A stretch of DNA of 64,000 bases from an uncultured archaeon (GCA_902384455.1 CABMCB010000004.1:1-64000), one strand, 5' to 3'. Shown: positions 6,133 to 24,300, counted from the stretch's first letter. The notes: a model not told the origin generated them from the letters alone. Made by a program: numbers and translations.

Positions 6133-6165
6133 GCTTTTAGTGAAATCAACCAGGGAGGACTTTGG

Positions 6166-6735: not shown

Positions 6736-6743
6736 AAAAACGG

Positions 6744-6772: not shown

Positions 6773-6809
6773 GTACACACGTCGGAAAACTACCCAGGAG
6801 GTTTATCGC

Positions 6810-7406
6810 ATGGCTGACACCAAGACGAAAGCACCGAAGGAATCCTTCGAGGACACGGTCCTGAAGGAGGTCAGCCCCGCCGTCCGAGCCGTCTTGCTCG
6901 AACGTGTGATGTTGGCCACCCCGGGATTGGACCCCAACGGGTTCACGCTGCCGGTCGACGCTCCCAAGGACCCCAAGGTGTTGGCCATCGAGAAGGCCAT
7001 CCGCGACAACCAGTTCAACCACAGCTCGGACAACGACGTTCTGGCAACCATCTTGTCGACTGTCCTGGACATGAAGCTGGAGCCCTATCCAAAGTCCAAG
7101 TCGTCCTTCACCCAACCTTTCATGCTGGTCGTGCCTCTGAACAACACCAACAGCCACGACTACGCCGTGGGCGGGGTCTGCATGCTCCGCTCCAAGGGCT
7201 GCAAAGACGCCGTGGAAGTTGTGAGAGGCAAGGTCCGTGTGGGCAACGACCTTCCGACGAGCAAACTGGGCGACGGCGTGGAACTTCGGTTCGCGTCCAA
7301 GGCCGAGGCCGAGGAATTCGTGACCAAGGTCGTCTCCTCCCTGGAGAACATCCAGAAGGTTCGGGGCTGGGTTCCCGAACTGGACGCCTACCTGGACAAG
7401 ATGTAA
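6810..7406 (+). CDS. paralog 3 of tandem family
   Basis: MADTKTKAPKE N-terminus; ATPGLDPN, PKDPKV, QPFMLVVP, SHDYAVGGV, SKAEAEEFVTKV. Confidence 0.65.
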   Translation: MADTKTKAPKESFEDTVLKEVSPAVRAVLLERVMLATPGLDPNGFTLPVDAPKDPKVLAIEKAIRDNQFNHSSDNDVLATILSTVLDMKLEPYPKSKSSFTQPFMLVVPLNNTNSHDYAVGGVCMLRSKGCKDAVEVVRGKVRVGNDLPTSKLGDGVELRFASKAEAEEFVTKVVSSLENIQKVRGWVPELDAYLDKM

Positions 7407-7421
7407 TCGCCTCCGGGTGCA

Positions 7422-7462
7422 GAGGGCGCGGGGCCACAAGCCTCGCGCCCTTTCTGTTTTTA
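7422..7462 (+). terminator. rho-independent terminator
   Basis: GC-rich stem GGGCGCGGGGCC-acaa-GCCTCGCGCCC followed by TTTCTGTTTTT. Confidence 0.65.
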
Positions 7463-7465
7463 GGG

Positions 7466-7494
7466 TTGACAATGAACAAAAACTGTGATAGAAT
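7466..7494 (+). promoter_or_regulatory. sigma70-type promoter TTGACA-N17-TAGAAT
   Basis: Preceded by TTTTAGGG. Drives paralog 4. Confidence 0.65.
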
Positions 7495-7537
7495 GCTTTC
7501 ACGTTGTTAAAAAATCTAAAACCGGAGGTAGTACAGA

Positions 7538-8128
7538 ATGAGCTCGTCGAAGAAGTCGTCGAAGAAGGTGTCGAAGAAGAGCGGCCTGTCCAAGGCTGGG
7601 AAGGCGCTGTTGGAGCTGGCCTTGAAGGCCACCCCGACCCCGACCCTCCCCGCCAAGAAGACCTCGCCCGTGCCCGTGCCTGTGCCCATCAACCCGCAGG
7701 TGAAGGCCGTCGAGGACGTCCTGGCCAAGAGCCCGTGGGGCCCCGGCGACACTCGCACCAAGCTGTTGGCGGACGTGGCCGCTGCCATCCTGGGCAAGCC
7801 GGTGACCGTCCCCTACGCCCCCTCCACCTGCTCCTCGTCCTGTTCCACAAAGCGCGGGATGGTGGTGGTGGTGACGATGGTGGACGTCCCCGGCTACACC
7901 AAGGGCCAGCCCGTCATGTTCAAGTCGACTGGCGGCTCCCACGGCTTGACCGTGAAGGACGGCAAGGTCGTGCGGATGGACTACTCCCTGCCGGTGGGCA
8001 AGCTGGGCGACCCGAGCGTCCTCCGCTACGCCACCAAGAGCGAAATCGAGGGCCTCGTCAAGCGCTTGACGGCCACCCCCTCGCTCGTGCAGGACACGCA
8101 GTCCTGGATGGAGCTGGTCCTGGCCTAA
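7538..8128 (+). CDS. paralog 4 of tandem family (most divergent; Lys/Ser-rich N-terminus)
   Basis: Retains ATPTP, QPVMF, GGSHG, VLRYATKSEIEGLVKRL, which correspond to the family motifs. Confidence 0.55.
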   Translation: MSSSKKSSKKVSKKSGLSKAGKALLELALKATPTPTLPAKKTSPVPVPVPINPQVKAVEDVLAKSPWGPGDTRTKLLADVAAAILGKPVTVPYAPSTCSSSCSTKRGMVVVVTMVDVPGYTKGQPVMFKSTGGSHGLTVKDGKVVRMDYSLPVGKLGDPSVLRYATKSEIEGLVKRLTATPSLVQDTQSWMELVLA

Positions 8129-8146
8129 GCCGGTCCCTGCTGTACC

Positions 8147-8182
8147 GGGCGGGGGACCTAACCAGTCCCCCGCTTTTTTTTG
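8147..8182 (+). terminator. rho-independent terminator
   Basis: GCGGGGGAC-ctaacca-GTCCCCCGC followed by TTTTTTTT. Confidence 0.75.
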
Positions 8183-8198
8183 TTGGTATACTTACGGC

Positions 8199-8282
8199 GG
8201 GCTTGTGGTGAAATTGGCAGACACGCCTGCCTCAAGAGCAGGTGGCCGCAAGGTCGTGAGGGTTCGAGTCCCTCCTTGCCCA
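8199..8282 (+). tRNA. tRNA-Leu(CAA), class II, CCA encoded; two U-U mismatches in acceptor stem
   Basis: Anticodon stem CCTGC/GCAGG, loop CTCAAGA; Leu-type D-arm; T-arm GAGGG-TTCGAGT-CCCTC. Acceptor GGGCTTG/CTTGCCC. Confidence 0.7.
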
Positions 8283-8292
8283 CCAAATAATC

Positions 8293-8378
8293 GGGCTTGT
8301 GGCGAAACTGGCAGACGCGCCCTACTTAAGATGGGGTGCCCCGAGAGGGGCGTGTGGGTTCAAATCCCACCTTGCCCA
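8293..8378 (+). tRNA. tRNA-Leu(TAA), class II, CCA encoded; same mismatched acceptor as Leu(CAA)
   Basis: Anticodon loop CTTAAGA; variable-arm hairpin; T-arm GTGGG-TTCAAAT-CCCAC. Confidence 0.7.
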
Positions 8379-8383
8379 CCAAT

Positions 8384-8455
8384 ACCCTCCTCGTTCAACG
8401 GACAGGACACCTCGCTACGGACGAGGAGACTGGGGTTCGATTCCCTAGGAGGGTA
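8384..8455 (+). tRNA. tRNA-Arg(ACG), CCA encoded
   Basis: Acceptor ACCCTCC/GGAGGGT, anticodon stem CCTCG/CGAGG, loop CTACGGA. Confidence 0.8.
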
Positions 8456-8461
8456 CCATAT

Positions 8462-8534
8462 GTCCCAGTAGCTCAGCCGGAAGAGCAACCGCCTTCTAAG
8501 CGGTCGGTCGCAGGTTCGAGTCCTGCCTGGGATG
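8462..8534 (+). tRNA. tRNA-Arg(TCT), CCA encoded
   Basis: Anticodon stem ACCGC/GCGGT, loop CTTCTAA; T-arm GCAGG-TTCGAGT-CCTGC; G1-U72. Confidence 0.8.
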
Positions 8535-8542
8535 CCATTTAT

Positions 8543-8614
8543 GCCCCGGTAGCTCAGCGGAGGAGCAGCGGTTTCCGAAGCCGAAGGACAGGGGTTCAAA
8601 TCCCTTCCGGGGTA
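8543..8614 (+). tRNA. tRNA-Arg(CCG) (anticodon assignment tentative), CCA encoded
   Basis: D-arm GCTC-AGCGGAG-GAGC, anticodon loop TTCCGAA with a 4-bp stem, T-arm AGGGG-TTCAAAT-CCCTT. Confidence 0.6.
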
Positions 8615-8620
8615 CCATAC

Positions 8621-8693
8621 GCACTCGTAATTCAGTGGCCAGAATGCCGGTCCTACACACCGGACGTCGTAGGTTCGAATCCTACCGAGTGCA
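8621..8693 (+). tRNA. tRNA-Val(TAC), CCA encoded; C at position 33
   Basis: Acceptor GCACTCG/CGAGTGC, anticodon stem CCGGT/ACCGG, loop CCTACAC, T-arm GTAGG-TTCGAAT-CCTAC. Confidence 0.7.
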
Positions 8694-8703
8694 CCATTTT
8701 TAT

Positions 8704-8775
8704 GGCCTTGTAGCTTAACTGGTAAGAGCGCCCGCCTGAAGAGCGGGATATCCGGTTCGACACCCGGCGAGGCCA
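8704..8775 (+). tRNA. tRNA-Phe(GAA), CCA encoded
   Basis: Anticodon stem CCCGC/GCGGG, loop CTGAAGA; T-loop TTCGACA. Confidence 0.8.
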
Positions 8776-8786
8776 CCATTTTTATC

Positions 8787-8814
8787 TTGACATCCTCCCT
8801 GACCCTGGTATAAT
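8787..8814 (+). promoter_or_regulatory. sigma70-type promoter TTGACA-N16-TATAAT
   Basis: Immediately downstream of tRNA-Phe; drives gene 8842. Confidence 0.65.
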
Positions 8815-8841
8815 GGGGTCATCTTGAAAGGGAGGTTGACC

Positions 8842-9165
8842 ATGAACGCAGTTCTGAACAGCTCAAACGTCCAGTGCCCCAAGCCCGAGGTCGGGATGGG
8901 TGCCACCAAGCTGTACTTCACCGACCGCGCTGCCTACACCATCGTGCGCGTCTCCCCTTCCGGCAAGACCTTCTGGATGAAGCGTGACAAGGCCACCCGC
9001 ACCGACACCAACGGCATGTCCGAGTCCCAGACCTACTCCTACGAATCCTTGCCCGACATCATGCCGGAGGAAGCGGTCCGCCTGTGCCAGGATGGCCAGT
9101 GGCGCTCCGTGGGGATGAAGGTCTTAGTGAGTGCCCGCAGGGAGTACCACGACTACAGCTTTTAA
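8842..9165 (+). CDS. hypothetical protein
   Basis: RBS GGAGG 7 nt before ATG 8842; ORF frame 8824..9165. Confidence 0.5.
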   Translation: MNAVLNSSNVQCPKPEVGMGATKLYFTDRAAYTIVRVSPSGKTFWMKRDKATRTDTNGMSESQTYSYESLPDIMPEEAVRLCQDGQWRSVGMKVLVSARREYHDYSF

Positions 9166-9167
9166 GG

Positions 9168-9196
9168 TTGACATCAACCAACTCGTCTTGTAAAAT
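9168..9196 (+). promoter_or_regulatory. sigma70-type promoter TTGACA-N17-TAAAAT
   Basis: Preceded by TTTTAAGG. Confidence 0.65.
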
Positions 9197-9224
9197 GTTC
9201 CCACCTCAAGCATAGGAGACGTCC

Positions 9225-9743
9225 ATGGGCCGCGAAGTGCGAATGGTTCCCCCCGGTTGGCAGCACCCTCAGGAGGCTGATGGCAGATACAAGCCTCTCC
9301 TCGACGGTAGCTTCGAAAAGGCCCTGGCCGAATGGACCGAGGGCAAGAAGAAGTGGGAAGAGGGTTTTCGGGAGAACTGGGGCGCGAAAGAAGGCGAACC
9401 CAAGTGGAAGCCCAAGGAAGCAGATGAGACGTGTTCCTGGGTCGAATGGAATGGTTCCAAGCCCCAGAAACGGGATTACATGCCAACCTTCCCAGAAGGC
9501 ACCGCCACTCACCTCATGATGTACGAGACATGCACGGAAGGTACGCCCATCAGCCCCGCTTTCGCCACGCCCGAAGAACTGGCCCACTGGTTGGCTGATA
9601 ACGGGGCCTCGGCCTTCGGAGACATGACGGCCACCTACGAACAGTGGCTGGCGACCTGCAAGTCCGGCTGGGCTCCCAGCGCCGTCTTCACATCCCAGAC
9701 CGGCCTCACGAGCGGGGTCGCGGCCACCAAAGAGCGCGGTTGA
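9225..9743 (+). CDS. hypothetical protein
   Basis: RBS AGGAGACG; 172 aa, Trp- and Glu-rich. Confidence 0.5.
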   Translation: MGREVRMVPPGWQHPQEADGRYKPLLDGSFEKALAEWTEGKKKWEEGFRENWGAKEGEPKWKPKEADETCSWVEWNGSKPQKRDYMPTFPEGTATHLMMYETCTEGTPISPAFATPEELAHWLADNGASAFGDMTATYEQWLATCKSGWAPSAVFTSQTGLTSGVAATKERG

Positions 9744-9769
9744 CATAAGCCCCCTCACTTTAGTAGAAT
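9740..9769 (+). promoter_or_regulatory. sigma70-type promoter TTGACA-N18-TAGAAT (tRNA-His)
   Basis: Overlaps the stop codon of the previous gene; 14 nt upstream of tRNA-His. Confidence 0.6.
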
Positions 9770-9783
9770 GTGCGTCTTGTGGT

Positions 9784-9857
9784 GTGGGCGTAGCTTAGCT
9801 GGTCTAAAGCACTGGGTCGTGGACCCGGCATCGGGAGTTCGAATCTCCCCGCTCACC
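9784..9857 (+). tRNA. tRNA-His(GTG), CCA encoded; position -1 is T rather than G
   Basis: Acceptor GTGGGCG/CGCTCAC, discriminator C, anticodon loop TCGTGGA, T-arm GGGAG-TTCGAAT-CTCCC. Confidence 0.7.
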
Positions 9858-9888
9858 CCAGAAGGCGTACACCAAAAAGGAAACGACC

Positions 9889-10176
9889 GTGCCTCAAGTA
9901 CATGCCAAAGCCCACCCCCTCGCGGGTAAGACCGTGAAAATCCTCAAGGGGGATTTCAAGGGCGAGGAATATCGCCTGGAAGACTGGTGGGACCGTGTGT
10001 CCGGCGAGTCTTGGATGAACTGCGAAGGTAACCCTGCCTGCATCGAGTACGCCCTGCGCTCCTCTGGGCTCCGCAACAAGGAAGACGCGACCCCCATCGA
10101 CAACAACGTGGTCTACGGGAAAATCGGGGCGTTCGGCAAGCTGATGCACGTCTCGACGCTTGACACGCTGGGCTGA
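9889..10176 (+). CDS. hypothetical protein
   Basis: GTG start with RBS AAAGGAAAC; 95 aa. Confidence 0.45.
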   Translation: MPQVHAKAHPLAGKTVKILKGDFKGEEYRLEDWWDRVSGESWMNCEGNPACIEYALRSSGLRNKEDATPIDNNVVYGKIGAFGKLMHVSTLDTLG

Positions 10177-10207
10177 GTCTGTTAAACTGCGTTCACTGGA
10201 GGACGTC

Positions 10208-10300
10208 ATGGACAAGCTTTTGATGGTAGTCGGCGGCATCTTGTTGGTCGTGGTGTTCATTTCGGTGTTCGCCATCTTCGGCGGAACCCTCGTGTACTAG
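10208..10300 (+). CDS. small hydrophobic peptide (30 aa, single TM helix)
   Basis: RBS GGAGGACGTC before the ATG; MDKLLMVVGGILLVVVFISVFAIFGGTLVY. Confidence 0.35.
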   Translation: MDKLLMVVGGILLVVVFISVFAIFGGTLVY

Positions 10301-10437
10301 CTGTGGCCGTCCACTGCCGTCGCTGTGTTCAACCTGCCCGCGCTGACATGGTGGCAGGCTGTGAAGCTGACATGGCTCTGCTCCCTCCTGTTCAAGAGTT
10401 CGAGCGTGTCGACCAAGAAGGACTGAAAGGAACCGGC

Positions 10438-10632
10438 ATGAAGCTCCTGAAGCTGAAGCACAACGGTGAGGCGGGCATCCAGCCGATGACCCAGCCGTCC
10501 AAGGAAGAGAAGAACCCTGAAATCATCTTCCGCTTGACCATCAAGCGGGGGAGCATCCAGGTCCAGGTCGACCTGACCGTCGACGAGGCCATGGACCTTC
10601 TGGAGCCGGTGCTGCAGTACACCAACAAGTAG
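10438..10632 (+). CDS. hypothetical small protein
   Basis: RBS AAGGAACC before ATG 10438. A longer ORF from 10303 is possible. Confidence 0.35.
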   Translation: MKLLKLKHNGEAGIQPMTQPSKEEKNPEIIFRLTIKRGSIQVQVDLTVDEAMDLLEPVLQYTNK

Positions 10633-10640
10633 GAGCTCCC

Positions 10641-11042
10641 GTGGCCAGCTACAACGACCCGAAGAAGGTGCGGAAGGACAACATCTGGCTGTACGCCCAG
10701 AACAAGCCCTCCCTCATCATCAAGGACCTGGAGAAGTACGGGGTCCCTGCGGAGGACGCGCTTCAAATCCTTCTGGCTCGTGGGGTCTGCAAGTGGTTGG
10801 CAGCACGTCGGGACCTTATCCACACCAAGGACGCCTGGAAAGAGCAAATCCGTCAGTGCCATGAAGAAATCCTCAAGCTCAAGGGAGCTGGTGACTTCAA
10901 GGCCCTCAACAAGGCCCGTGGACGCCTGGAAGCCCTGAACGTCTGCCGTCAGCAGGTCCGGGCCATCTGTAAGAGCGAACGCTGGAGAGTGCCGGACTTC
11001 GACGGTAAAGCTGCCGAGCTTCTCAAGAGGTTGGAGAAATGA
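10641..11042 (+). CDS. hypothetical protein
   Basis: GTG start after RBS GTAGGAG; 133 aa. Confidence 0.5.
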   Translation: MASYNDPKKVRKDNIWLYAQNKPSLIIKDLEKYGVPAEDALQILLARGVCKWLAARRDLIHTKDAWKEQIRQCHEEILKLKGAGDFKALNKARGRLEALNVCRQQVRAICKSERWRVPDFDGKAAELLKRLEK

Positions 11043-11401
11043 AACGAAACACCTTCCTGGTTCTCGCACTCGGATGTCTGGTGTGGCATGCCCAGGCATT
11101 TGACAACACCTGTTCAACAGCCATGAAAGAAGCAGTCAGCTTCTTTAACAGTCTCCCCTCCAATGCAGTGAATGCTCAAATCACGTCCGGGGGAATTGGA
11201 ATCTCTTCTTGCCATGCCTGGGTCGTAACTTGGGGTACGTCCTGCGACGAAAGTTCAGGAACTCAAGCCTCAGCTACTCAAGCCTCAGATACCCAAGCTG
11301 CCGTCTACAAGCCTAAGCCAGACTGGCGGACGTTCCCGACCAAGTATCGGAAGCCCAGCAAGGCTTCAACACCGACGAAGGATGGGATGATACTCAAGTG
11401 A
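11039..11401 (+). CDS. secreted protein (signal peptide), Ser/Thr-rich
   Basis: MKRNTFLVLALGCLVWHAQA N-terminal signal; the ATG overlaps the upstream stop. Confidence 0.55.
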   Translation: MKRNTFLVLALGCLVWHAQAFDNTCSTAMKEAVSFFNSLPSNAVNAQITSGGIGISSCHAWVVTWGTSCDESSGTQASATQASDTQAAVYKPKPDWRTFPTKYRKPSKASTPTKDGMILK

Positions 11402-11637
11402 AAAAGACCAAGAAGGTCAAGAAGACCAAGAAACCCACAACCTACATCAAGAACCTGGGAGAGTTCCTGGACAAGTACTACCCCAGCCTGACTCCAAACG
11501 ACAGGGCCAAGCGCATCCTCATGGCCGAAATTCGTGTGGCCTTGGACAAGTACTTCAAGACCACGAGCGCATTTAGGGATGACGCCGAAAGCATCTTCAT
11601 CGAAATCCTGAGGGACCTACGTGGCTTCTCAATCTGA
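11398..11637 (+). CDS. hypothetical protein, Lys-rich N-terminus
   Basis: GTG start overlapping the upstream stop; 79 aa. Confidence 0.45.
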   Translation: MKKTKKVKKTKKPTTYIKNLGEFLDKYYPSLTPNDRAKRILMAEIRVALDKYFKTTSAFRDDAESIFIEILRDLRGFSI

Positions 11638-11830
11638 CAAACTCGTCGAAGGTGTCAAGAAGCGCATCGGCAACGAGCCGTGGTTCAAAGGTGTGTGCAT
11701 GGACGGTCTGACCGATGACATGACGTTGGCGGAGGCCATCGACCATGCAACAAGTGAAACCATCTACTGGGACAGCCCTTACTTGGCTGGCCCGAAGGAT
11801 GTTTTCCAAACAAGTGAGGAGAAGAAGTAA
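11621..11830 (+). CDS. hypothetical protein
   Basis: GTG start; 69 aa. Confidence 0.4.
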   Translation: MASQSDKLVEGVKKRIGNEPWFKGVCMDGLTDDMTLAEAIDHATSETIYWDSPYLAGPKDVFQTSEEKK

Positions 11831-12094
11831 ATGGGAGAGCTCATCGCCATTTTCGCAGCCGTCATCATCGCCATCGGCGTTGCCGTAGGTATCGTCAAGG
11901 TGATGCAGACCAACACCAAAACCGTGGACGTCAAGAAGACCTTGACCGACACGGAGAAGGCCACATGGTTGGCCGACCACCTTTCTTCGACTTCGGTCAG
12001 CTTTGCTGGGACATGTCTCGTGGAAGACCACACCTATGAGGTGAAGCGTCTCCTCCGCAAGCTTGCCGATTACGAGAAGGGCAAGCGCGTCTGA
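11831..12094 (+). CDS. membrane-anchored hypothetical protein
   Basis: N-terminal TM helix LIAIFAAVIIAIGVAVGIV. Confidence 0.5.
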   Translation: MGELIAIFAAVIIAIGVAVGIVKVMQTNTKTVDVKKTLTDTEKATWLADHLSSTSVSFAGTCLVEDHTYEVKRLLRKLADYEKGKRV

Positions 12095-12255
12095 TGGGTA
12101 GTGGAATCGTACTCGCGTTTATCATCGGGATTCTTTGGGGCATAGGCATAGGTGCCGCATGCACCAAAAAAGACCGTTGTGAATGTTGCGAGTACAACCG
12201 TAGGAAGAATCAGGAGAAGACGCCTCAAGGGCACGGCTGCTGCGGAATTCACTGA
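12094..12255 (+). CDS. small Cys-rich membrane peptide (53 aa)
   Basis: ATG overlaps the upstream TGA. TM helix IVLAFIIGILWGIGIGAA, then CECCEY...GCCG. Confidence 0.35.
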   Translation: MGSGIVLAFIIGILWGIGIGAACTKKDRCECCEYNRRKNQEKTPQGHGCCGIH

Positions 12256-12268
12256 AGGGAGCTGTCTT

Positions 12269-12526
12269 GTGATTGAAGGGCTCACCGCACAAGAGAAGCA
12301 GGCGTTCCAAATCAAGCACTGCATGAACCGCTTAAAAGAGCGGTTTGACTTGGGACCCGAACACTACTACCAAATCCTCAACCGAATTGCTAACGGAGGG
12401 GGTACGATGGTCAAGCCCTCAAAGACCGTCAAAGATACCTATGTGGTCCGACTGAATTACTTGGGTAACCGCTTGAAGGTCGTGGTCGACAGCAAGCACA
12501 GCCACATGCTCACGGTGTACAAGTGA
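12269..12526 (+). CDS. hypothetical protein
   Basis: GTG with RBS AAGGGAGC; C-terminal part of ORF 12152..12526. Confidence 0.45.
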   Translation: MIEGLTAQEKQAFQIKHCMNRLKERFDLGPEHYYQILNRIANGGGTMVKPSKTVKDTYVVRLNYLGNRLKVVVDSKHSHMLTVYK

Positions 12527-12735
12527 AACAAGACAAGGCCATCCGCCAGGACGAAGATGTACCGGCACAGACCAAGAGGGCAGGGTACCGGAAGCTCCGC
12601 AAGCAGGAACTGGAGCGCAAGGGGCTTATCAACTGTGGCCGGTGCCCCTTTAACAAGCACGAAAACGCCAATCGAAAACCGGCCCATTCAAGCTGGAAAA
12701 CAAGCCGAAAGACCCGGTATAAGGGTCAGGGATAG
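12523..12735 (+). CDS. small basic protein with CGRC...H.N (HNH-like remnant?)
   Basis: GTG overlapping the upstream stop; 70 aa, Lys/Arg-rich. Confidence 0.4.
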   Translation: MKQDKAIRQDEDVPAQTKRAGYRKLRKQELERKGLINCGRCPFNKHENANRKPAHSSWKTSRKTRYKGQG

Positions 12736-12787
12736 GTTCCGGCAGGAATCGTCCAAAAAACACCCCTTTAAATGCAAGGGAGAGGCC

Positions 12788-12964
12788 ATGGGCAAGGTAT
12801 ATGCCAAGGGAAAGCACCGTACTTGTGGGGTTTGTAAGCCTCACAAGGTGGGTTGGGAGCCCAAGAAGAAGCTGAAGGTCCGGGTCAAGGAAAAATCCAT
12901 GGCCTTGGATATCCGCGATGTTGACCGGGATTTGATGAACGGCAGGCCGGACCCTGGAGTTTAA
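12788..12964 (+). CDS. small basic protein (CGVC motif)
   Basis: Strong RBS AAGGGAGAGG before ATG 12788. Confidence 0.4.
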   Translation: MGKVYAKGKHRTCGVCKPHKVGWEPKKKLKVRVKEKSMALDIRDVDRDLMNGRPDPGV

Positions 12965-12971
12965 AAAGTAG

Positions 12972-13000
12972 TTGACAGGTCGAAAAGCTTCTGATACACT
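12972..13000 (+). promoter_or_regulatory. sigma70-type promoter TTGACA-N17-TACACT
   Basis: Upstream of paralog A1. Confidence 0.6.
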
Positions 13001-13042
13001 GTGTGAGCGTTGGACATCAAATCCGGGAGGATATTCGAAACC

Positions 13043-13780
13043 ATGGAAATGGCAAGCTGGTTCGAGGACAAGAAGGGCCAAGGGTATATCTTCCTCACGG
13101 ACGAGGACATCATCGCCCACCACGGGGGAGACAAGAACGGCATCAACTGGAACGACTTCGTCGGCCACCACGGACTGATGCAGGTCTTCCACCTCCCCGA
13201 CGCCTACAACCATTACGAGGGCTTCGTCCGCATGCCGGACGTCATCCGCAAGACCATCCTCGCGGGCAAGATGGACATGATGTTCGCCCACGCCGACAAC
13301 CTGTGCGAGGCGACCCCCGAGTTCATCCCCATGATGCACCGGCTGTCCTCCCGCTACAGCAAGGTGGCGTCCGCCCTCTCCTCCAGCCCCTACAGGGACT
13401 GGCACATCGAGAAGGGAAAGCCCACCCTCCACATGCAGATGAAGGTCGGCATCGAGAACGGCTTCAAGGGCTCGACTATCGGGGAAATCCTGCGCCACCC
13501 CCTGTGCGACGAGAAGACCATGTTCCTCGCCTTGGAAGGTGCCCGTGAGCTGATGGACGAGTACCCGGAGCACCACCACTACCGGAACATGGTGGAGAAC
13601 CAGTACGTCACCAAGAAGGTCCTGAACTTCATCCTCAAGAACATCCCCCACGTGGATGTGAAGGAGTGGGCCGAGGCCAGGTTGAAGACCTGCAAGGACC
13701 TGAAGCTTACGAAGGTCACTCTGACCCGTAAGAAGGTCAAAACCGTCCAGATAGACAAAGCCCTGGTAAGGAGCCTGTGA
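13043..13780 (+). CDS. paralog A1 of a duplicated family of unknown function (MEMASWFE...FLTDEDIIAHHG)
   Basis: RBS GGGAGG. Shares its full-length scaffold with 15333..16121 (ASWFE, FLTD.D.IA, W.D.VGH.GLM.VF.LP, MPDVIRK, KMD..FAHA.NL.EATPEF, KGSTIG.ILRHP.C.E.TM.LAL). Confidence 0.6.
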   Translation: MEMASWFEDKKGQGYIFLTDEDIIAHHGGDKNGINWNDFVGHHGLMQVFHLPDAYNHYEGFVRMPDVIRKTILAGKMDMMFAHADNLCEATPEFIPMMHRLSSRYSKVASALSSSPYRDWHIEKGKPTLHMQMKVGIENGFKGSTIGEILRHPLCDEKTMFLALEGARELMDEYPEHHHYRNMVENQYVTKKVLNFILKNIPHVDVKEWAEARLKTCKDLKLTKVTLTRKKVKTVQIDKALVRSL

Positions 13781-15093
13781 TGAAGAAACCACTCAAGGTC
13801 GTCATGCTGGACTTCACCGGCACTATCGACGTCAGCGAATACAAGTACACGCCTTCGAAGACGTCGTACTTCCCCGGCGTCAAGACGAAGGCCGAGAAGG
13901 CGGAGGAAGCCCGCTCGAAGTACCGTGGCGGGTGCAAGTACCCCACCAAGGCGGCACGGAAGGCGGCGCAGGCGGAGCGTAAGGCCGAGCGCAAAGCGGC
14001 CTTATTCCCCAAGACGACGACCGCTCTAGCTCCGACTACCGAGACTTTCGACCGGGACAAGTATCCACGTCGTGCGGCCTTGCTCGACAAGCGTCACGGC
14101 AGCATCATCAACGCCTGGGAGCCCAGCCTGAGCCGATACGTCGACAAGCGCTGGGACGCCGACCTGCAGCGGTACGTCATCATCGAGGGAACGACCCCGT
14201 CAGCCCCTCCGCGCCGCAAGACGTACCTCAAGTGGAACTACGCGCTGAACCGCAACGTCGAGAGCTACTGGGACGATGTCCAGGGTCGGTGGGTTCCGGT
14301 CGAGGAAGAGCTCATCCCGAACAAGCATCATTCCGGACTGTCCGGGGAGCCTCGGTTCCATGGTGAGCAGCCAAAGTACGTGTACGACAGCCTGACGAAC
14401 ATGTGGGTCCCCCGCGAATCTCAGGGCAGCTTCTTCGAGAACGTCGACGACGGCAGCGGTTCGTTCGAGCATCGAGAGAAGGGTGCTCTCCGTACCGGCA
14501 CTTCCCAGTACTACGGCGGAAGCAAGGCCAGCAAGCCCAGCGGAGCCAAGGACTACTTCGGCAAGCTGTACGGGATGGGCAAGGCGTTCCTCGCGTCGAC
14601 GTACTACTACGGTCCCAACAAGGAGTGCGTCAAGTTCCTCCGGAAGTTGCTGGACAAGACCGGCGCGAAAATCGTGTACTCCTCGACCCGTCGCTACGAC
14701 GGCTGGAAGAAGTGCGCGGAGTTCGTGGGCCTTCCCCTTCACTACTCCCTGGGCTACACACACCCAGCTTTCGGCGTGACCCCCGAAATCCCTTACGAGT
14801 ACAAGGGCTGGGGTGGCAAGGGTGGCTGGGGAAATCAAGGCGGCGTCGAGCCCGAAGGCCACTACGTGGAAGAGGAAGGAGCCGGGGACTACAGCTACGC
14901 TGGCTGGAAGCAGCGTGAGAAGGAAATCCGCAAGTGGTTGGATGCCTTCAAGCGCCCCCTGGCCAACTACGTCATCCTCGACGACGACCCCATCAACAGC
15001 CCCGAAATGGCCAAGCATTGGGTCCCGTCCATCAAGGCCAACGGATTCAAGGAAGCGGAATACAAGCAGGCCCTTCGAATCCTGAGCAAGTAA
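13780..15093 (+). CDS. HAD-like phosphatase with large cap insertion
   Basis: N-terminal LKVVMLDFTGTID (DxTGT), C-terminal KIVYSSTRR and YVILDDDP. C-terminus resembles the HAD protein at 4753 and the Pnk phosphatase domain. Gly-rich GWGGKGGWGNQGG. Confidence 0.5.
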   Translation: MKKPLKVVMLDFTGTIDVSEYKYTPSKTSYFPGVKTKAEKAEEARSKYRGGCKYPTKAARKAAQAERKAERKAALFPKTTTALAPTTETFDRDKYPRRAALLDKRHGSIINAWEPSLSRYVDKRWDADLQRYVIIEGTTPSAPPRRKTYLKWNYALNRNVESYWDDVQGRWVPVEEELIPNKHHSGLSGEPRFHGEQPKYVYDSLTNMWVPRESQGSFFENVDDGSGSFEHREKGALRTGTSQYYGGSKASKPSGAKDYFGKLYGMGKAFLASTYYYGPNKECVKFLRKLLDKTGAKIVYSSTRRYDGWKKCAEFVGLPLHYSLGYTHPAFGVTPEIPYEYKGWGGKGGWGNQGGVEPEGHYVEEEGAGDYSYAGWKQREKEIRKWLDAFKRPLANYVILDDDPINSPEMAKHWVPSIKANGFKEAEYKQALRILSK

Positions 15094-15332
15094 TCAATCG
15101 CCCTCCCCTGTGCAACGGGGGAGGGAAGGAGAACTGGGTACAAGGCTAACCCAGTGCCGAGTCTGGAGCGAAAACCTGTCCACGGCCACCCAGAGGCCTA
15201 ACCCTGAGGTCGCGCACTTCAGGGCGACTAGAGGGCAGTACCTAACTGTAGGGTAACTGGCACCCCAGCCTGTCTGGTCCGGGGAACATACAGTCAGATA
15301 AGCGGCTACTTTAACCGAGGAGAAAGACGACC

Positions 15333-16121
15333 TTGTCGGAAATGGCAAGCTGGTTCGAAACCGAGAAGGGATTCTTGTTCTTGACCGATGGCGACGTCAT
15401 CGCCTACAACGAGAACCGTGGGGTGCCCAAGTCGCAAATCGACTGGAACGACTATGTCGGGCACGACGGCCTCATGAAGGTGTTCGGCCTCCCCAACAAG
15501 TGGTCGCACCAGGAAGGTTTCGTCTCCATGCCCGACGTCATCCGGAAGATGCTCTTCGACGGCAAGATGGACTTCCTCTTCGCCCATGCGGGGAATCTCT
15601 CGGAAGCCACTCCGGAGTTCCTCCCCGTCTTCCAGCGCCTGGCTCCTCGTTTCCCCCACGTGAAGAACGAAATGGAGCGGAACCCCTACTTCCAGATGTT
15701 CCTGAAGAGCGGCAGGATTCCCAAGCTCATCAAGAGCCTATCCCTGCACCGGCAGATGCAGGTGGGCATCAAGCACGACTTCAAGGGCTCGACCATCGGC
15801 CAAATCCTCCGGCACCCGCATTGCGAAGAGCGGACCATGCTCTTGGCCCTCTCAACCCGGAAGACCCGCGAGTACATGAACGAGTACTCCGACCTGCACC
15901 ACTACTTCAACATCGTGCACAATCTCTCGACGACCAAGGCGGTCCTGGAGTACATCGTCAAGAACATCAAGCACTCGCGGGTGGTGTCTGCCGCCCAGAC
16001 CCGCCTTGAGGCCATGGTCCCCAAGAAGACGAAGAAGAGTACCTTGAAGTTCAAGAAGACCTCCATCAAGGCCAAGAAGTTCCGCACCGGCAGCAGGGCC
16101 ATCGTCCGAAACCTCGCCTAA
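15333..16121 (+). CDS. paralog A2 (duplicate of A1)
   Basis: TTG start at 15333 or ATG at 15342 (MSEMASWFE / MASWFE). Preceded by a 240-nt structured spacer with no sigma70 consensus. Confidence 0.6.
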   Translation: MSEMASWFETEKGFLFLTDGDVIAYNENRGVPKSQIDWNDYVGHDGLMKVFGLPNKWSHQEGFVSMPDVIRKMLFDGKMDFLFAHAGNLSEATPEFLPVFQRLAPRFPHVKNEMERNPYFQMFLKSGRIPKLIKSLSLHRQMQVGIKHDFKGSTIGQILRHPHCEERTMLLALSTRKTREYMNEYSDLHHYFNIVHNLSTTKAVLEYIVKNIKHSRVVSAAQTRLEAMVPKKTKKSTLKFKKTSIKAKKFRTGSRAIVRNLA

Positions 16122-16131
16122 GGAGGGTGTC

Positions 16132-17211
16132 GTGAAGCTCGAAGACATCGGATTCTACACCCTGAGTGACGGACGCGCCCAAAACGTGTCTGTCACTTCC
16201 CCGCTCCAGCGCTGTGAGCTCATCCTGACCGGCGCTTGCAACTTCCGTTGCGAGTATTGCCGTGGGCTGAGCCAGCATGCAAAGGGGACCCTCTCCCTCG
16301 ACCAGGCCAAGGCTGTCGTGAAGAAGTGGGCCAGCCACGGTCTGGTGAACATCCGATTCAGCGGCGGGGAGCCTACCTTGTGGCCCGGCCTCGTCGAGCT
16401 CGTGAAGTACACCAAGTCCAAGGGTGTCAAGCGGGTGGCCCTGTCCACCAACGGCTCCGCTTCCCCTGAGCTCTACAAGGAACTCTACGGAGCCGGTGTC
16501 AACGACTTCTCTGTGTCCCTGGACGCCTGCTGTGCGGCCACAGGTGATATGATGGCCGGGAAGGGTGGGATGTGGGAGCGGGTGGTCAACAACATCCAAA
16601 TGCTGTCCAAGGTCACCTACGTGACCGTGGGCGTGGTCCTGGACGAGCGGAACGTACCTGAGCTTCCCGGCATCATCCAGTTGGCGAAGGACCTAGGCGT
16701 CAGTGACATCCGAATCATTTCCACTGCCCAGGAAAACAAGCCTCTGCCCGTCGAGGATATCCAGGACGACCCTCGGTATCCGATTCTGAAGTACCGCCTC
16801 AACAACATACGGCACGGTCTGAACGTTCGTGGTCTGAAGCCGACAGACTCCAACCGATGCAGGCTGGTCCTGGACGACATGGCAATTGCCAATGGCATTC
16901 ATTTCCCCTGCATCATCTACATGCGAGAGCATGGGGCTCCTATCGGGTCCGCTGACCAGTCCATGGAAGCGATTCGGGCCGAACGCGAAAGGTGGGCTCT
17001 AACCCATGACACGCATACCGACCCCATCTGCCAAAAGAACTGCCTCGACGTCTGCATCGACTACAACAACCGATGCGCGGCGTTTGCAGCCGACCGCATT
17101 GCCCGAGGAGCTGGACCCGACTCAGTTCACCTTCGAAAGGTGGATGGCGGGGTCCATCAAGGACCTGGGAGTGCCGTGCCGGACCAAGTGGATTCTGTCG
17201 GGGTACGGTAG
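16132..17211 (+). CDS. radical SAM enzyme, MoaA/SPASM-like
   Basis: CNFRCEYC (CxxxCxxC), FSGGEPTL, ALSTNGS, C-terminal Cys cluster CQKNCLDVCIDYNNRC. GTG start after RBS AGGAGGG. The last ~40 codons look like out-of-frame sequence, so the 3' end is uncertain. Confidence 0.7.
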   Translation: MKLEDIGFYTLSDGRAQNVSVTSPLQRCELILTGACNFRCEYCRGLSQHAKGTLSLDQAKAVVKKWASHGLVNIRFSGGEPTLWPGLVELVKYTKSKGVKRVALSTNGSASPELYKELYGAGVNDFSVSLDACCAATGDMMAGKGGMWERVVNNIQMLSKVTYVTVGVVLDERNVPELPGIIQLAKDLGVSDIRIISTAQENKPLPVEDIQDDPRYPILKYRLNNIRHGLNVRGLKPTDSNRCRLVLDDMAIANGIHFPCIIYMREHGAPIGSADQSMEAIRAERERWALTHDTHTDPICQKNCLDVCIDYNNRCAAFAADRIARGAGPDSVHLRKVDGGVHQGPGSAVPDQVDSVGVR

Positions 17212-17371
17212 GGACATCCTCACCAAGGCGATTGTGGGCTGGTGTCCTGGTGAGAGCCTTATGTGCCGCCCCAAGGTCAAGCACGTGGCCGTCATGGTCA
17301 ACGTTGACGACGGTTTCTACTGGTTCCACCTTCGGGAGAACGAGTTCAAGGAATTGTATAATCAGGGTTGA
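17144..17371 (+). CDS. small protein overlapping the 3' end of the radical SAM gene (+1 frame)
   Basis: RBS GAAAGGTGG before ATG 17144; 76 aa; MAGSIKDLGVPCRTKWILSGYG... Could instead be the C-terminus of a frameshifted longer product. Confidence 0.4.
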   Translation: MAGSIKDLGVPCRTKWILSGYGRDILTKAIVGWCPGESLMCRPKVKHVAVMVNVDDGFYWFHLRENEFKELYNQG

Positions 17372-17396
17372 CAAGACCCTCTACCCATGATAAAGT
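17368..17396 (+). promoter_or_regulatory. sigma70-type promoter TTGACA-N17-TAAAGT
   Basis: The -10 ends 7 nt before ATG 17403, implying a leaderless mRNA. Confidence 0.55.
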
Positions 17397-17402
17397 GAGC
17401 AC

Positions 17403-17663
17403 ATGAAAGTCATCTACAAGTACCCCATACCCATCAAGGACATGTTCTCCCTGGAGCTCCCGAAGCACAGGAAGATTCTTTCCGTCCAGTACCAGGGAAC
17501 CACCCCGGTCATGTGGGTACTCGTGGACCCGGAAACCCCCAGGGAGAAGGTGTGGTTCGACATCTTTGGTACGGGGCATCCCATGGACCGCTGGTTCGGG
17601 GAATACATCACCACCATCCAGGACCCAGAGCACCCTCTCGTGTGGCATATCTTCGAAAGGTAG
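17403..17663 (+). CDS. hypothetical protein (86 aa)
   Basis: First ATG after the promoter; MKVIYKYPIPIKDMFSLELPKH. Confidence 0.5.
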   Translation: MKVIYKYPIPIKDMFSLELPKHRKILSVQYQGTTPVMWVLVDPETPREKVWFDIFGTGHPMDRWFGEYITTIQDPEHPLVWHIFER

Positions 17664-17694
17664 CCCATGAAACGCTTCAAAGCCTGGCTCAAGA

Positions 17695-18558
17695 ATGTGT
17701 GGTTCAAAATCTGGTACACCTGCTGAGGTACGTGTGAAACGACCCTTCGAATCCCTAACCTTTGAGGAACAGTTCTTCATCGAGGACTACCGCAGGAAGG
17801 TCCAGTCCGGGGCCTATCCCGTGCAGATGATATGCGCGGACGCCTGTGTCTTCTGGGACAACTTCCGTGAGTTCTTGGCGGCATGTAAGGATGCAGGTAT
17901 CCGGAAGATTTACTTGACCGGCCAGAACATGGACAGCCTTCAGTACCCCCGCCCCCACCTCATGTCCCTCATTCAGTATTTGAAGGACCACGGCTTCTCC
18001 ATCGGCATCAGAACGAACGGACTGCTTGCCCCCGTCCGGATTCCTGAAATCCTCGCGTGTAATGACGAAATCGGATACACCATCAACAGCTTGGACACCG
18101 AGTGTAACGTACAGACTATGGGACCGGCAGCCGCGAAACTGACGAAAGAGCATTGGGAATGGGCACTCAACTTGACCCAGTGCCGGGTGTCCACGGTTGT
18201 CCATCGGTACAACATGAACAAGGTGTTGGACCTCACAAAATTCCTTTCCGAATACCCTACGGTCGCTTACCATCAACTTCGTCGGGTGTCTACAGACCAC
18301 CGCTACCCTCAGTTCCAGGAAGACATTGAAGCCTTCGAAGAACTAGCTTTCTTCATCGAAAGAACCTATCCTATGCTCCGGGAATTCTACGGAGCCCCCA
18401 TCTACAAAATACACGGCAAAGAAGTGTCCTTGTGGCGTACCGTGGAGACGTCCATTAACAGCTTCAACTACTTCACGGACGGAACCTGGAGCAAGGAGTA
18501 TTTCGTAGTTGAGGGGTACGAGAAGGCCAGAGGGTTGACATCCCCTAAGGATGTATGA
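17695..18558 (+). CDS. radical-SAM-like / TIM-barrel protein lacking the canonical Cys triad
   Basis: GIRTNGLL (the TNG motif shared with gene 16132), CADAC. Alternative GTG start at 17734. Confidence 0.45.
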   Translation: MCGSKSGTPAEVRVKRPFESLTFEEQFFIEDYRRKVQSGAYPVQMICADACVFWDNFREFLAACKDAGIRKIYLTGQNMDSLQYPRPHLMSLIQYLKDHGFSIGIRTNGLLAPVRIPEILACNDEIGYTINSLDTECNVQTMGPAAAKLTKEHWEWALNLTQCRVSTVVHRYNMNKVLDLTKFLSEYPTVAYHQLRRVSTDHRYPQFQEDIEAFEELAFFIERTYPMLREFYGAPIYKIHGKEVSLWRTVETSINSFNYFTDGTWSKEYFVVEGYEKARGLTSPKDV

Positions 18559-18799
18559 TACCTTGGTATAGGTGGGTCAGCGTGGAAGGACACGCCTGAA
18601 AGAATGAAAGGGCCCCTCTTGCTAAGGGGACGGGCAGCGATAAGCGGAGAACGCCGCCGCCCAGGCTAGGTACCAACCCGCGAATGTGCGAGTAAACACT
18701 TAAGCGGAGGTCTTTCTGGGTCCTGTTTTACTACAGCGCCCCGTGAAACCTAGAGCCGGAATCAATCCCGGTACCCACCGACTTTTATCAGGAGTCACC

Positions 18800-19507
18800 A
18801 TGAAAACTATCCTAAAAACCCTCGTCGGCAGCCGTGCACACGGGCTCCACACCGAAAAGTCGGATTACGACTATCGGGGCGTGTTCGTCGTACCCACCTC
18901 GGAAATCCTATCCCTGGGGTACAAGGAAAAGGCCACCTCCTGGCTCGAAGGTCAGGGGGAGGACGCTACGGCCTACGAGCTCCACCATTTCCTGAACCTC
19001 GCCACCCATTCGAACCCTTCCATCCTGGAAGTCTTGGTCAGTCCGGTCGTCGAGGAAACCATCGAAGGCCGCGCCCTGCAGGAACTGTTTCCGGCCCTGT
19101 GGAATTCGAAGGACGTTCTCAATGCCTTCGGAGGCTACTCGGCCAACCAGCGCAAGAAGTTCCTCGAAGATAAGGATGGGCGTCCCTGGAAGTTCGCTGC
19201 GGCCTACGTGCGCGTCCTTCTCCTGGGCATCGAGCTCCTGAACACAGGCAAGATGAACGTGAACCTCAACGTACAGGAAGCTGCCCTGGGGAGTGCAGGC
19301 ATCAACCTGGGCAACTTTGCCGGTGGGTTGCGTGACTACATCTACTCCATCAAGACCGGAAACGGCATCAAGAAGGGCGAGGTTGTCGATTGGGCTGAGT
19401 ATCTGAGCGGCCAGCTCAAGGAAGCCTACGAGCGGAACCCCAACAAAGTGACCGATGTGGAGAGAGTCAACGACTTCCTCCTGAAGGCACGAAAGGCGAA
19501 CTGGTAA
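18800..19507 (+). CDS. nucleotidyltransferase (Pol-beta superfamily, PF10127-like)
   Basis: LVGSRAHGLHTEKSDYDYRGVFV, the GS...DxD nucleotidyltransferase signature. Start chosen at MKTILK with RBS CAGGAG. Confidence 0.6.
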   Translation: MKTILKTLVGSRAHGLHTEKSDYDYRGVFVVPTSEILSLGYKEKATSWLEGQGEDATAYELHHFLNLATHSNPSILEVLVSPVVEETIEGRALQELFPALWNSKDVLNAFGGYSANQRKKFLEDKDGRPWKFAAAYVRVLLLGIELLNTGKMNVNLNVQEAALGSAGINLGNFAGGLRDYIYSIKTGNGIKKGEVVDWAEYLSGQLKEAYERNPNKVTDVERVNDFLLKARKANW

Positions 19508-20397: not shown

Positions 20398-20865
20398 ATG
20401 ACCCCCTACGATTCCACTATCGACACCCTAAAGCACCGTGAGCTTGTGGTGTACTACATCCACCTCATCATCGACGAGCTCATGACCCGGGCGGAGCTTC
20501 ACGACCTGTCCAAGCTATCCCCCGAAGAGAAACCCCTCTTCGACGAGTTTACCCCCAAACTGAAGGCCACGCCTTACGGGAGCCCTGAGTACCACGAGAA
20601 CGTCGCACGTCTCGGGGAGGCTCTCAAGCACCACTACGCCGTCAACCGGCACCACGTCGAGCACTTCCCTGACGGCGTCAAGGGCATGAACCTCGTAGAC
20701 CTCATCGAAATGATTTGTGACTGGAAAGCCAGCACTTACCGGCAACAGGGCGGGAACCTTCTCCGGTCCATCGACCTGAATACCGACAGGCTGCAGCATT
20801 CCGACCAGCTCGTGACCATCTTCGAAAACACCGCCAAAGAGATTCTGGAGAGAAATCCTCAATGA
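20398..20865 (+). CDS. putative HD-domain-like phosphohydrolase
   Basis: His/Asp-rich motifs ELHDLSK, HHYAVNRHHVEH, DLIEMICD. Assignment is tentative. Confidence 0.4.
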   Translation: MTPYDSTIDTLKHRELVVYYIHLIIDELMTRAELHDLSKLSPEEKPLFDEFTPKLKATPYGSPEYHENVARLGEALKHHYAVNRHHVEHFPDGVKGMNLVDLIEMICDWKASTYRQQGGNLLRSIDLNTDRLQHSDQLVTIFENTAKEILERNPQ

Positions 20866-21146
20866 AAACAGCCAGAAATGCCGTCATTGACCTGAATAGG
20901 GCCCTAAACGTCGATTCTGAGGCCATTACGGCCCTCTTCAGCATCCAGGTCCAGTGCAAGAAGGAATTAGGGGAAAAAACCCCCTTTAAATGCAAACCAA
21001 GTGCTACTACGGACGGTAGCGTAAGCTACACCATCAGTATGCTGGACCTTCTCCGTGGCATTTTCGAAGATAAGGGCATCCACTACGATATGAACGCCCG
21101 GCGACAAATCGTCGCTTTTAGGATTGACAACCCTTACGGGTTATGA
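20862..21146 (+). CDS. hypothetical protein
   Basis: 94 aa; overlapping start and stop. Confidence 0.45.
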   Translation: MKTARNAVIDLNRALNVDSEAITALFSIQVQCKKELGEKTPFKCKPSATTDGSVSYTISMLDLLRGIFEDKGIHYDMNARRQIVAFRIDNPYGL

Positions 21147-21152
21147 TACTAT
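21124..21152 (+). promoter_or_regulatory. sigma70-type promoter TTGACA-N17-TACTAT
   Basis: Preceded by TTTTAGGA; lies inside the 3' end of the previous gene. Confidence 0.6.
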
Positions 21153-24225: not shown

Positions 24226-24300
24226 GAGGTAGGTAGCTCAACAGGTAGAGCCGCAGGATGGTATCTGCGAGATTGAGGGTTCGAGTCCTTCACGACCTCG
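24226..24300 (+). tRNA. aberrant tRNA-like element (8-nt anticodon loop GATGGTAT, no CCA, imperfect acceptor)
   Basis: D-arm GCTC-AACAGGTA-GAGC, stem CGCAG/CTGCG, T-arm GAGGG-TTCGAGT-CCTTC. Possible pseudo-tRNA, frameshift-suppressor-like tRNA or att-site remnant. Confidence 0.3.

Follow-up and report, generated by a model that had tools for sequence, protein, structure and literature searches.

Positions 12972-18558 of a 64,000-nt stretch of DNA (the window, by which we mean the whole stretch that was analysed) carry three independent accessory modules, which lie side by side in a phage RNA-repair/tRNA island. The record, a 69-kb NCBI contig, is labelled 'uncultured archaeon', and we judged from its gene content that the source of the window is an uncultured large phage. 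The first module is a gene pair encoding a protein of an undescribed family, here called A (copy A1), and a HAD_SAK_2 phosphatase-like protein. The second consists of a radical SAM enzyme (rSAM-1) and its small partner protein (Cdom), encoded behind another copy of A (A2). The third is a chimeric open reading frame (ORF), in which the beginning of a Nudix gene is joined to most of a gene of a second family, rSAM-2. Our confidence in this mosaic anatomy (translational coupling, split gene and chimera) is high. We put a probability of roughly 0.5 on the explanation in which the three modules are independent, A1-HAD would act as a phosphoesterase, rSAM-1/Cdom would supply a radical step for RNA repair, and the chimera would be dead. 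For the biochemical functions, all of which we infer, our confidence is moderate to low. The features of the stretch are listed below.

12972-13000, + strand: promoter-like site 5' of A1 (TTGACA-17-TACACT with TG)
13043-13780, + strand: A1, undescribed family; novel N-terminal alpha/beta domain, LRV/HEAT-like helical repeats and basic disordered tail
13777-15093, + strand: HAD_SAK_2 phosphatase-like protein (PF18143, 46.6 bits against a cut-off of 27.5); its start overlaps the A1 stop (GTGA)
15101-15125, + strand: GC-rich 11-bp hairpin directly 3' of the HAD stop, within the 239-nt spacer before A2; boundary between module 1 and module 2
15333-16121, + strand: A2, divergent A1 paralog, an orphan without HAD partner; its TTG start gives the family N-terminus MSEMASWF
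16132-17211, + strand: rSAM-1, radical SAM enzyme (PF04055, 2.6e-23; CNFRCEYC at residues 36-43, GGEP, TNG)
17099-17371, + strand: Cdom, conserved ~90-aa partner of rSAM-1, within the small overlapping ORF 17006-17371; probable TTG start at 17099
17368-17396, + strand: promoter-like site (TTGACA-17-TAAAGT with TG)
17403-17663, + strand: DUF7352 protein, 86 aa (3e-26)
17695-18558, + strand: chimeric ORF; codons ~24-54 (17764-17856) correspond to a Nudix N-terminus, and from 17854 on to the 3' four-fifths of an rSAM-2 gene

Every ORF named in an earlier note on this DNA was found on the + strand at the same coordinates, and the small overlapping ORF, the second promoter-like site and the 86-aa protein that it described are all present. 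The note had read the stretch as a duplicated cassette, in which each copy of A was paired with a different enzyme. We found that DNA similarity between A1 and A2 (70-88% in blocks) is limited to the A coding sequence (13045-13645 against 15338-15968), indicating that gene A alone was duplicated and that there was no cassette duplication.

The neighbourhoods of relatives were read from +/-6-10 kb flanks, and all co-occurrence counts rest on these flanks. None of the 80 viral rSAM-1 loci contained A, HAD, DUF7352 or the family of the ORF at 17695, and A, HAD and rSAM-1 were all absent from the 37 rSAM-2 loci. No A locus other than that of A2 had a radical SAM gene beside it. The absence of A from all 80 rSAM-1 loci makes the A2-rSAM-1 adjacency unique to the window. 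Absence from related genomes had been named beforehand as an outcome that would refute the proposed association; the association holds for A and HAD (13/16 A genes) and fails for A2 and the radical SAM enzyme (0/80). A2 is an old divergent orphan copy of A, and the position of rSAM-1 behind it is probably a one-off juxtaposition. More generally, what looks like a 'pathway cassette' in a phage accessory region can be a set of chance neighbours and deletion scars. DUF7352 was found in one of the 37 rSAM-2 loci, at a distance of 4 kb, and is unlinked to either radical SAM family. Furthermore, a megablast of the region and a tblastn of A2 against 50,697 GenBank phages gave zero matches.

The A family and its HAD_SAK_2 partner

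The full-length alignment of A1 and A2 contains 131/263 identical positions (50%, E 2e-84) and all the motifs quoted in the earlier note, so that its reading of the two as full-length paralogs stands. The family is also undescribed, as had been claimed. Sequence-profile searches of Pfam, PHROG, NCBIfam, PADLOC and PDB gave zero matches, a Foldseek search of the A model against BFVD returned nothing below E 0.3, and no known unrelated family was matched. The family is small, with just 18 proteins among 5.8 billion searched and about seven full-length clusters among 1.84 billion cluster representatives. We found two A copies per contig in five contigs (the window, L001, L004, L163 and L164). In a rough neighbour-joining tree, the copies of the same phage are non-sister, indicating that the A duplication is old. 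A1 is the sister of the A gene in a syntenic contig (L010), and A2 is placed on a long branch beside another orphan copy, L164b.

A and HAD_SAK_2 form a conserved, translationally coupled two-gene unit. Across related contigs, HAD_SAK_2 lies directly 3' of A in 13/16 A genes, and the HAD partners at the other A loci are likewise annotated PF18143. A 4-nt stop/start overlap of the form [A/G]TGA was identified by script in 11/13 A-HAD pairs and by gene calls in a twelfth (L164). The catalytic motif is altered throughout. In each of the 12 A-linked HADs that we recovered, motif I reads [LV]DF[TNS]GT[IM]D and the residue at Asp+2 is Thr, Asn or Ser, whereas a stand-alone HAD_SAK_2 copy in the window has Asp in the sequence DIDGV. 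In the HAD at 13777-15093, motif I is LDFTGTID, with the nucleophile Asp retained and Thr at Asp+2, and motif IV (ILDDD) is retained as well.

The earlier description of this protein as a HAD-like phosphatase with a large insertion was borne out, as motif I (residues 12-19) is set apart from the remaining fold (residues 282-427) by some 260 variable residues. The insert length ranges from about 0 to 300 aa among relatives. The insert itself (13835-14620) is of low complexity, with short Trp/Arg motifs that recur, for example RWDADLQRYV, YWDDVQGRWVPVEE and NMWVPRE; the inserts of relatives are entirely different in sequence and length. A sequence-profile search of PDB with the HAD protein gave zero matches.

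Three of the 16 A genes have no HAD behind them: rSAM-1 follows A2, a 252-aa protein follows one copy in L001, and small ORFs follow one in L164. In L001, a contig of 152 kb (10759-11517 and 11587-12363), the 252-aa protein follows A with a 4-nt overlap, and a further ORF of 258 aa lies 3' of it. Neither protein has a Pfam match; for A, the 252-aa protein represents a partner other than HAD. In the window, the hairpin that separates the HAD gene from A2 has no U-tract after it. A riboswitch or non-coding RNA in the 239-nt spacer was considered and dropped, with nothing found in Rfam and a fold z-score of -1.7.

We propose that A-HAD would be a two-subunit phosphoesterase. A would recognise the substrate and serve as an external 'cap' of a HAD core whose general-acid Asp+2 is replaced. 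The pair may remove phosphate from damaged RNA or tRNA ends, or from a phosphorylated repair by-product, alongside the Pnkp, Rnl1 and RlaP proteins encoded in the window.

The AlphaFold model of A (predicted local distance difference test, pLDDT, of 84) has three parts: a small alpha/beta domain at the N-terminus, a solenoid of helices, and a Lys/Arg-rich tail that is disordered. A falls below every LRV or HEAT Pfam threshold, and it is set apart from LRV/HEAT helical-repeat proteins by its distinct conserved N-terminal alpha/beta domain and its basic tail. By profile search, the N-terminal domain (~110 aa) is spread more widely than A; its fusion partners are genuine LRV/HEAT repeats plus helix-turn-helix (HTH), or else MORN repeats. 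A and these remote relatives have the conserved motifs GH.G, H.EGF and GKMD in common, and the domain looks like an undescribed domain family. The remote proteins (P0143-P0170; e.g. P0150, at locus L137 712-2193) begin with MC..PSW, after which come LRV/HEAT (+HTH) or MORN repeats.

A could be an adaptor or cap subunit, which we prefer, or a small metal-dependent enzyme. We found nine invariant polar residues in A (H59, E61, N88, E91, R102, S153, T154, C164 and Y191) and five near-invariant ones (H44, D80, H85, H189 and H190). This number of invariant polar residues suggests that A may itself be an enzyme or a ligand binder and not a passive adaptor. A would then be a metal-dependent enzyme of new fold and HAD its accessory partner, a reading that we consider somewhat unlikely. 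The density of invariant His, Glu, Asp and Cys despite an overall identity of only ~50%, the three motifs common to remote homologs of the N-terminal domain, and the lack of a structural match for this domain are consistent with such an enzyme. However, A is mostly helical repeat and disordered basic tail, its remote homologs fuse the N-terminal domain to more repeats and HTH and not to catalytic domains, and their N-terminal Cys is not retained in A.

A split radical SAM enzyme and a chimeric reading frame

The gene that follows A2 was correctly described as a radical SAM gene, and its PF04055 match and the motifs CNFRCEYC, GGEP and TNG were all recovered. The C-terminal cysteine motif had been given as CxxCxxxC; it is CQKNCLDVC (Cx3Cx3C). 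Five C-terminal Cys are invariant in the family (C243, C260, C300, C304 and C308). Similarity to relatives stops near 17092, and the final ~39 codons are read-through that overlaps the next gene.

We found that the rSAM-1 family has two forms, of ~320 aa and ~412 aa, and that the overlapping ORF of the window corresponds to the ~90 residues by which the long form exceeds the short one. This domain, Cdom, is fused to rSAM-1 or encoded immediately 3' or immediately 5' of it in 24/80 viral loci. In split relatives, the Cdom ATG stands just before (I/L)P(K/E)(L/I)D, and the TTG at 17099 occupies the same position in the window. Cdom has a confident predicted fold (pLDDT 90), which matches no known fold. 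The two genes look like an ordinary split pair, in which the upstream ORF reads through 39 extra codons, and we predict that rSAM-1 and Cdom make up one radical SAM enzyme in two parts. We rejected a frameshift or sequencing error as the cause of the split, because in split relatives Cdom begins with a start codon of its own at the matching place, and gene pairs that overlap are nothing unusual. The arrangement is like that of the PqqE/PqqD type, where a ~90-aa partner is likewise either fused or separate.

The closest family members are ~60% identical to rSAM-1, and 162 relatives were found in IMG/VR. At E<=1e-10 the matches numbered 3411, more distant radical SAM proteins among them. All 24 matches from the genome collection were contigs of metagenome-assembled genomes (MAGs) scattered over unrelated phyla, with no isolate genome among them, and a further search matched only three unannotated huge-phage records. 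The rSAM-1 family is restricted to phage/MAG contigs.

To known radical SAM enzymes, rSAM-1 is related in its core. It aligns with MoaA, SkfB and viperins over ~160-200 core residues only (~30-200), and the solved-structure matches were MoaA (1tv7/2fb2) first, with 62 bits, SkfB second, and then viperins. Assignment to MoaA was rejected, with scores of 94.9 bits against a cut-off of 284 for TIGR02666, 82.4 against 325 for TIGR02668 and 74.8 against 231 for NF001199. CxxxCxxC is invariant in rSAM-1 but occurs throughout the superfamily, and therefore does not discriminate MoaA. Clustering with the housekeeping MoaA of a host, which the earlier note had named as a refuting outcome, is excluded by the same scores and by the restriction to phage/MAG contigs, where the neighbours are phage genes and there is no moa context. 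A viperin/pVip was likewise rejected (48 bits against 180 for NF038283; 62 bits for PADLOC pVip, over the N-terminal core only), as was a SPASM/twitch maturase, for which the NCBIfam scores were far below the cut-offs, the five C-terminal Cys do not form the seven-Cys SPASM motif, and there was no PqqD match. The N-terminal CxxxCxxC core is common to rSAM-1, MoaA and viperin, whereas the C-terminal half of rSAM-1, Cx3Cx3C and Cdom are family-specific.

We examined the genes around rSAM-1 and found RtcB within 6 kb in 14/80 viral loci; it directly adjoins rSAM-1 in nine of the 80, and also in L006. The same probe found RtcB in 0/37 rSAM-2 loci. A PHA02142/Rnl-type ligase was near rSAM-1 in 6-7/80 loci and RlaP in 4-6/80. 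The solved structures closest to rSAM-1, MoaA and (after SkfB) the viperins, are of enzymes that use nucleoside triphosphates (NTPs) as substrates, and the ligase RtcB, which adjoins the gene in other phages, is GTP-dependent. We propose that rSAM-1/Cdom would perform a nucleotide- or RNA-directed radical step that aids RNA ligation. A short (~140 aa) GGDEF-like gene was also observed within 6 kb of rSAM-1 in 11/80 loci and within 1.4 kb in nine, often adjoining it (L083, L089, L088, L095, L065, L092, L099 and others). Together with RtcB and the MoaA-like core of rSAM-1, it hints at a GTP-centred theme.

The ORF at 17695-18558 had been put forward as a second radical-SAM-like gene of the same pathway. 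It does keep TNG (as IRTNG) and lack the Cys triad (CxxxCxxC), as stated. Its reading as a second pathway enzyme is not supported; we identified it as a chimera of Nudix and rSAM-2 sequence, probably produced by a deletion. Residues ~24-54 (31 residues, upstream of where the Nudix box would lie) are 80% identical to the N-terminus of the L010 Nudix protein, and residues 54-287 are 41-49% identical to the rSAM-2 family (270-290 aa). Similarity to rSAM-2 starts at residue 54 every time, and both homologies meet at a shared Trp codon (17854-17856). The alignment places the CNxxCxFC of rSAM-2 homologs within the ~50 N-terminal residues that are replaced here. The product scores 18.0 bits for PF04055, below the gathering score of 29.5. 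It has no Nudix box (GX5EX7REUXEEXGU) and no Nudix Pfam match, and the window contains no further Nudix sequence.

The simplest history would be a deletion in which a Nudix gene kept just its 5' part and became joined to an rSAM-2 gene that lost its own 5' part. In L016 and L017, a Nudix gene lies directly 5' of rSAM-2 within an isochorismatase-NAPRTase-Nudix-rSAM-2-NAD synthase cluster, and in L121, L122 and L135 an L010-like Nudix gene lies 2.3-2.6 kb 5' of rSAM-2. Since the Nudix box and the Fe-S site are both lost, the product is most likely inactive and the ORF most likely a remnant.

Two other rSAM-2 neighbourhoods were observed. The L016 cluster (5335-16314) comprises genes for isochorismatase, NAPRTase, Nudix, rSAM-2, NAD synthase, an NMNAT-like protein, CinA, NrtR and NAD kinase, and it lies beside a TraG/type IV secretion system gene. 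Mobile elements may therefore encode a radical SAM reaction of NAD-related metabolism that has yet to be described. In L018/L019 (7165-10283; viral contigs of ~237 kb), the genes on either side of rSAM-2 encode a NadR-like AAA_28 kinase and an RNA ligase, which further links MoaA/viperin-like radical SAM proteins to RNA ligation genes. The best solved-structure match of rSAM-2 is MoaA (1tv7/2fb2), with 47 bits, and viperins also match.

RNA ends, free nucleotides or a single pathway

Several observations weigh against our explanation by RNA repair. The RNA-repair role of HAD_SAK_2 is a prediction from the family name. With other partners behind 3/16 A genes, the A2-rSAM-1 pairing could be functional and not accidental, and the invariant residues of A may point to more than a passive role. 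RtcB adjoins only ~11% of rSAM-1 loci, and there is no RtcB in the window. We found tRNA genes near 18/80 rSAM-1 loci and near 10/37 rSAM-2 loci; this frequency is alike in the two families, so tRNA proximity is not specific, and we dropped proximity to tRNA arrays as a sign of a tRNA substrate. The ORF at 17695-18558 is still open over 287 codons, so some function may persist. In L008, rSAM-1 lies 1 kb from a NAD-salvage gene set, and rSAM-2 likewise has NAD-salvage genes beside it, which would favour free nucleotides over RNA.

This last point leads to an alternative in which the modules act on free nucleotides or on NAD/ADP-ribose metabolites as counter-defence, and not on RNA ends. HAD would then remove phosphate from nucleotides or ADP-ribose phosphates, and NTPs or NAD-related nucleotides would serve as substrates for the radical SAM enzymes. 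We regard this, the main rival, as unlikely. Among solved structures, MoaA, which acts on GTP, is closest to both radical SAM families, and viperins, which act on CTP/UTP/GTP, are also near (for rSAM-1, SkfB ranks between the two); the isochorismatase-NAPRTase-Nudix-NAD synthase cluster, the L008 locus and the GGDEF-like genes fit as well. NADAR, cREC_REC or YAcAr genes are found near A-HAD loci, and these domains have been tied to NAD/ADP-ribose processing (Iyer et al. 2021, PMC7824862). However, the RtcB genes that adjoin rSAM-1 in nine loci, the naming of the HAD family after RNA-repair proteins, and the basic tail and repeats of A, which fit macromolecule binding, all point to RNA, and no NAD-salvage genes were found in the window.

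The other two broader readings give A2 and rSAM-1 a shared function. In the first, A would be an interchangeable targeting subunit that takes partners (usually the Asp+2-less HAD, here rSAM-1/Cdom) to damaged tRNA or RNA, and rSAM-1/Cdom would add a radical step alongside RtcB-type ligation. Such a step could restore or remove a base or ribose modification at the break, or make a GTP-derived cofactor. We consider this proposal quite doubtful, and to our knowledge no radical-chemistry step is known in RNA repair. Our literature search found no paper linking radical SAM enzymes to RtcB, phage RNA repair or NAPRTase, and none mentioning HAD_SAK_2.

The second is the proposal of the earlier note, in which all genes from A1 to 17695-18558 form one duplicated-cassette pathway for a new nucleoside, tRNA or DNA modification, with the A proteins as subunits shared by the phosphatase and two radical SAM enzymes. 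All genes are on one strand, promoter-like sites stand at 12972 and 17368, 22 tRNAs and RNA-repair genes are neighbours, and A is seen with differing 3' partners. A role related to RNA or tRNA does fit this context. The proposal as a single pathway is nevertheless very unlikely, as the modules show zero co-occurrence in the rSAM-1, rSAM-2 and other A loci, the second radical SAM gene is a chimera without a cluster site, and between the two A units lie a hairpin and the 239-nt spacer.

The note's other possibility, a ribosomally synthesized and post-translationally modified peptide (RiPP), is hardly credible, whether the product of the small ORF or the 86-aa protein is taken as the substrate of the radical SAM enzyme: small ORFs do adjoin an enzyme that NCBI annotates as PqqE and that has SPASM maturases among its best NCBIfam matches, but the small ORF encodes a domain with a confident predicted fold, which in the 412-aa relatives forms one protein with the enzyme, DUF7352 does not co-occur with rSAM-1, the five C-terminal Cys are not the SPASM pattern, and no protease, transporter or RiPP recognition element was found.

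The surrounding RNA-repair island

Among the main means by which phages counter bacterial anticodon nucleases are systems for RNA repair and tRNA protection, whose known enzyme repertoire comprises ligases, kinases, phosphatases, nucleotidyltransferases and methylases. The stretch is part of an RNA-repair/conflict island with undescribed components, and we identified the following further genes and elements in the window.

4753-5265, + strand: second HAD_SAK_2 gene, stand-alone, in the tRNA array (72 bits; canonical motif I LDIDGVV)
18743-19507, + strand: RlaP nucleotidyltransferase, RNA repair (PF10127, 2.5e-26)
20398-20865, + strand: DUF5662 protein (1.1e-34)
24227-24299 and 24327-25229, + strand: tRNA-like element, then SPFH/Band-7 gene; RNA-repair scaffold pair
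27068-28210, + strand: T4 Rnl1-type RNA ligase (PF09511)
28596-29477, + strand: Pnkp kinase/HAD-phosphatase (AAA_33 and HAD_PNKP)

Rnl1, Pnkp, RlaP and Band_7 with the tRNA-like element thus all occur in the neighbourhood (13-30 kb), and this context suggests a role in RNA repair, or in a conflict related to it, by a putative mechanism. The kinase/phosphatase and the ligase of the phage context described earlier were confirmed as Pnkp and Rnl1, and the tRNA count was revised from about 25 to 22 tRNAs and one tRNA-like element. The window shares Rnl1, Pnkp, RlaP, the Band-7 gene with its tRNA-like element, two HAD_SAK_2 genes and a tRNA array with known RNA-repair systems (T4 Pnkp/Rnl1 and others). 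It adds the A family coupled to a HAD_SAK_2 protein with a DF[T/N/S]GT motif, which is undescribed in the literature searched.

Burroughs and Aravind reportedly described in 2016 a 'syntax' of such systems, in which a ligase, a nucleotidyltransferase, an end-modifying enzyme and a scaffold are combined, including Swiss-Army-Knife proteins with HAD_SAK domains, and RlaP. The Band-7 gene and the tRNA-like element form a pair which we take to match the scaffold pairing described for RNA-repair systems. RlaP adds 1 or 2 nucleotides to damaged RNA 3' ends and is required for the restoration of tRNA function (PMC12776372). In jumbo-phage surveys, RNA-repair genes and tRNA arrays have been tied to defence against host anticodon nucleases (PMC7824862).

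Three components of the island are uncharacterised: the tightly coupled A/HAD_SAK_2 pair with its systematically altered catalytic motif, the widespread and highly conserved radical SAM family that occurs on phage/MAG contigs only and recurrently adjoins RtcB, and the novel ~90-aa partner domain of rSAM-1. If rSAM-1 does work in RNA repair, this would be new chemistry for the field.

The tRNA-like element lies 28 nt 5' of the SPFH/Band-7 gene. ARAGORN leaves its anticodon undefined, with two bases, and it scores 29.9 bits for the Rfam tRNA model against a gathering score of 29. We also found three promoter-like sites of equal strength on the + strand (12972-13000, 17368-17396 and 21124-21152), which bracket gene groups and were identified by consensus match only; they may form one phage promoter class. 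Furthermore, strand and composition change at ~29.5-30.5 kb. From 6 to 30 kb, genes are on the + strand with a GC content of 0.55-0.60, and from ~29.7 kb on they are on the - strand with a GC content of 0.47-0.54.

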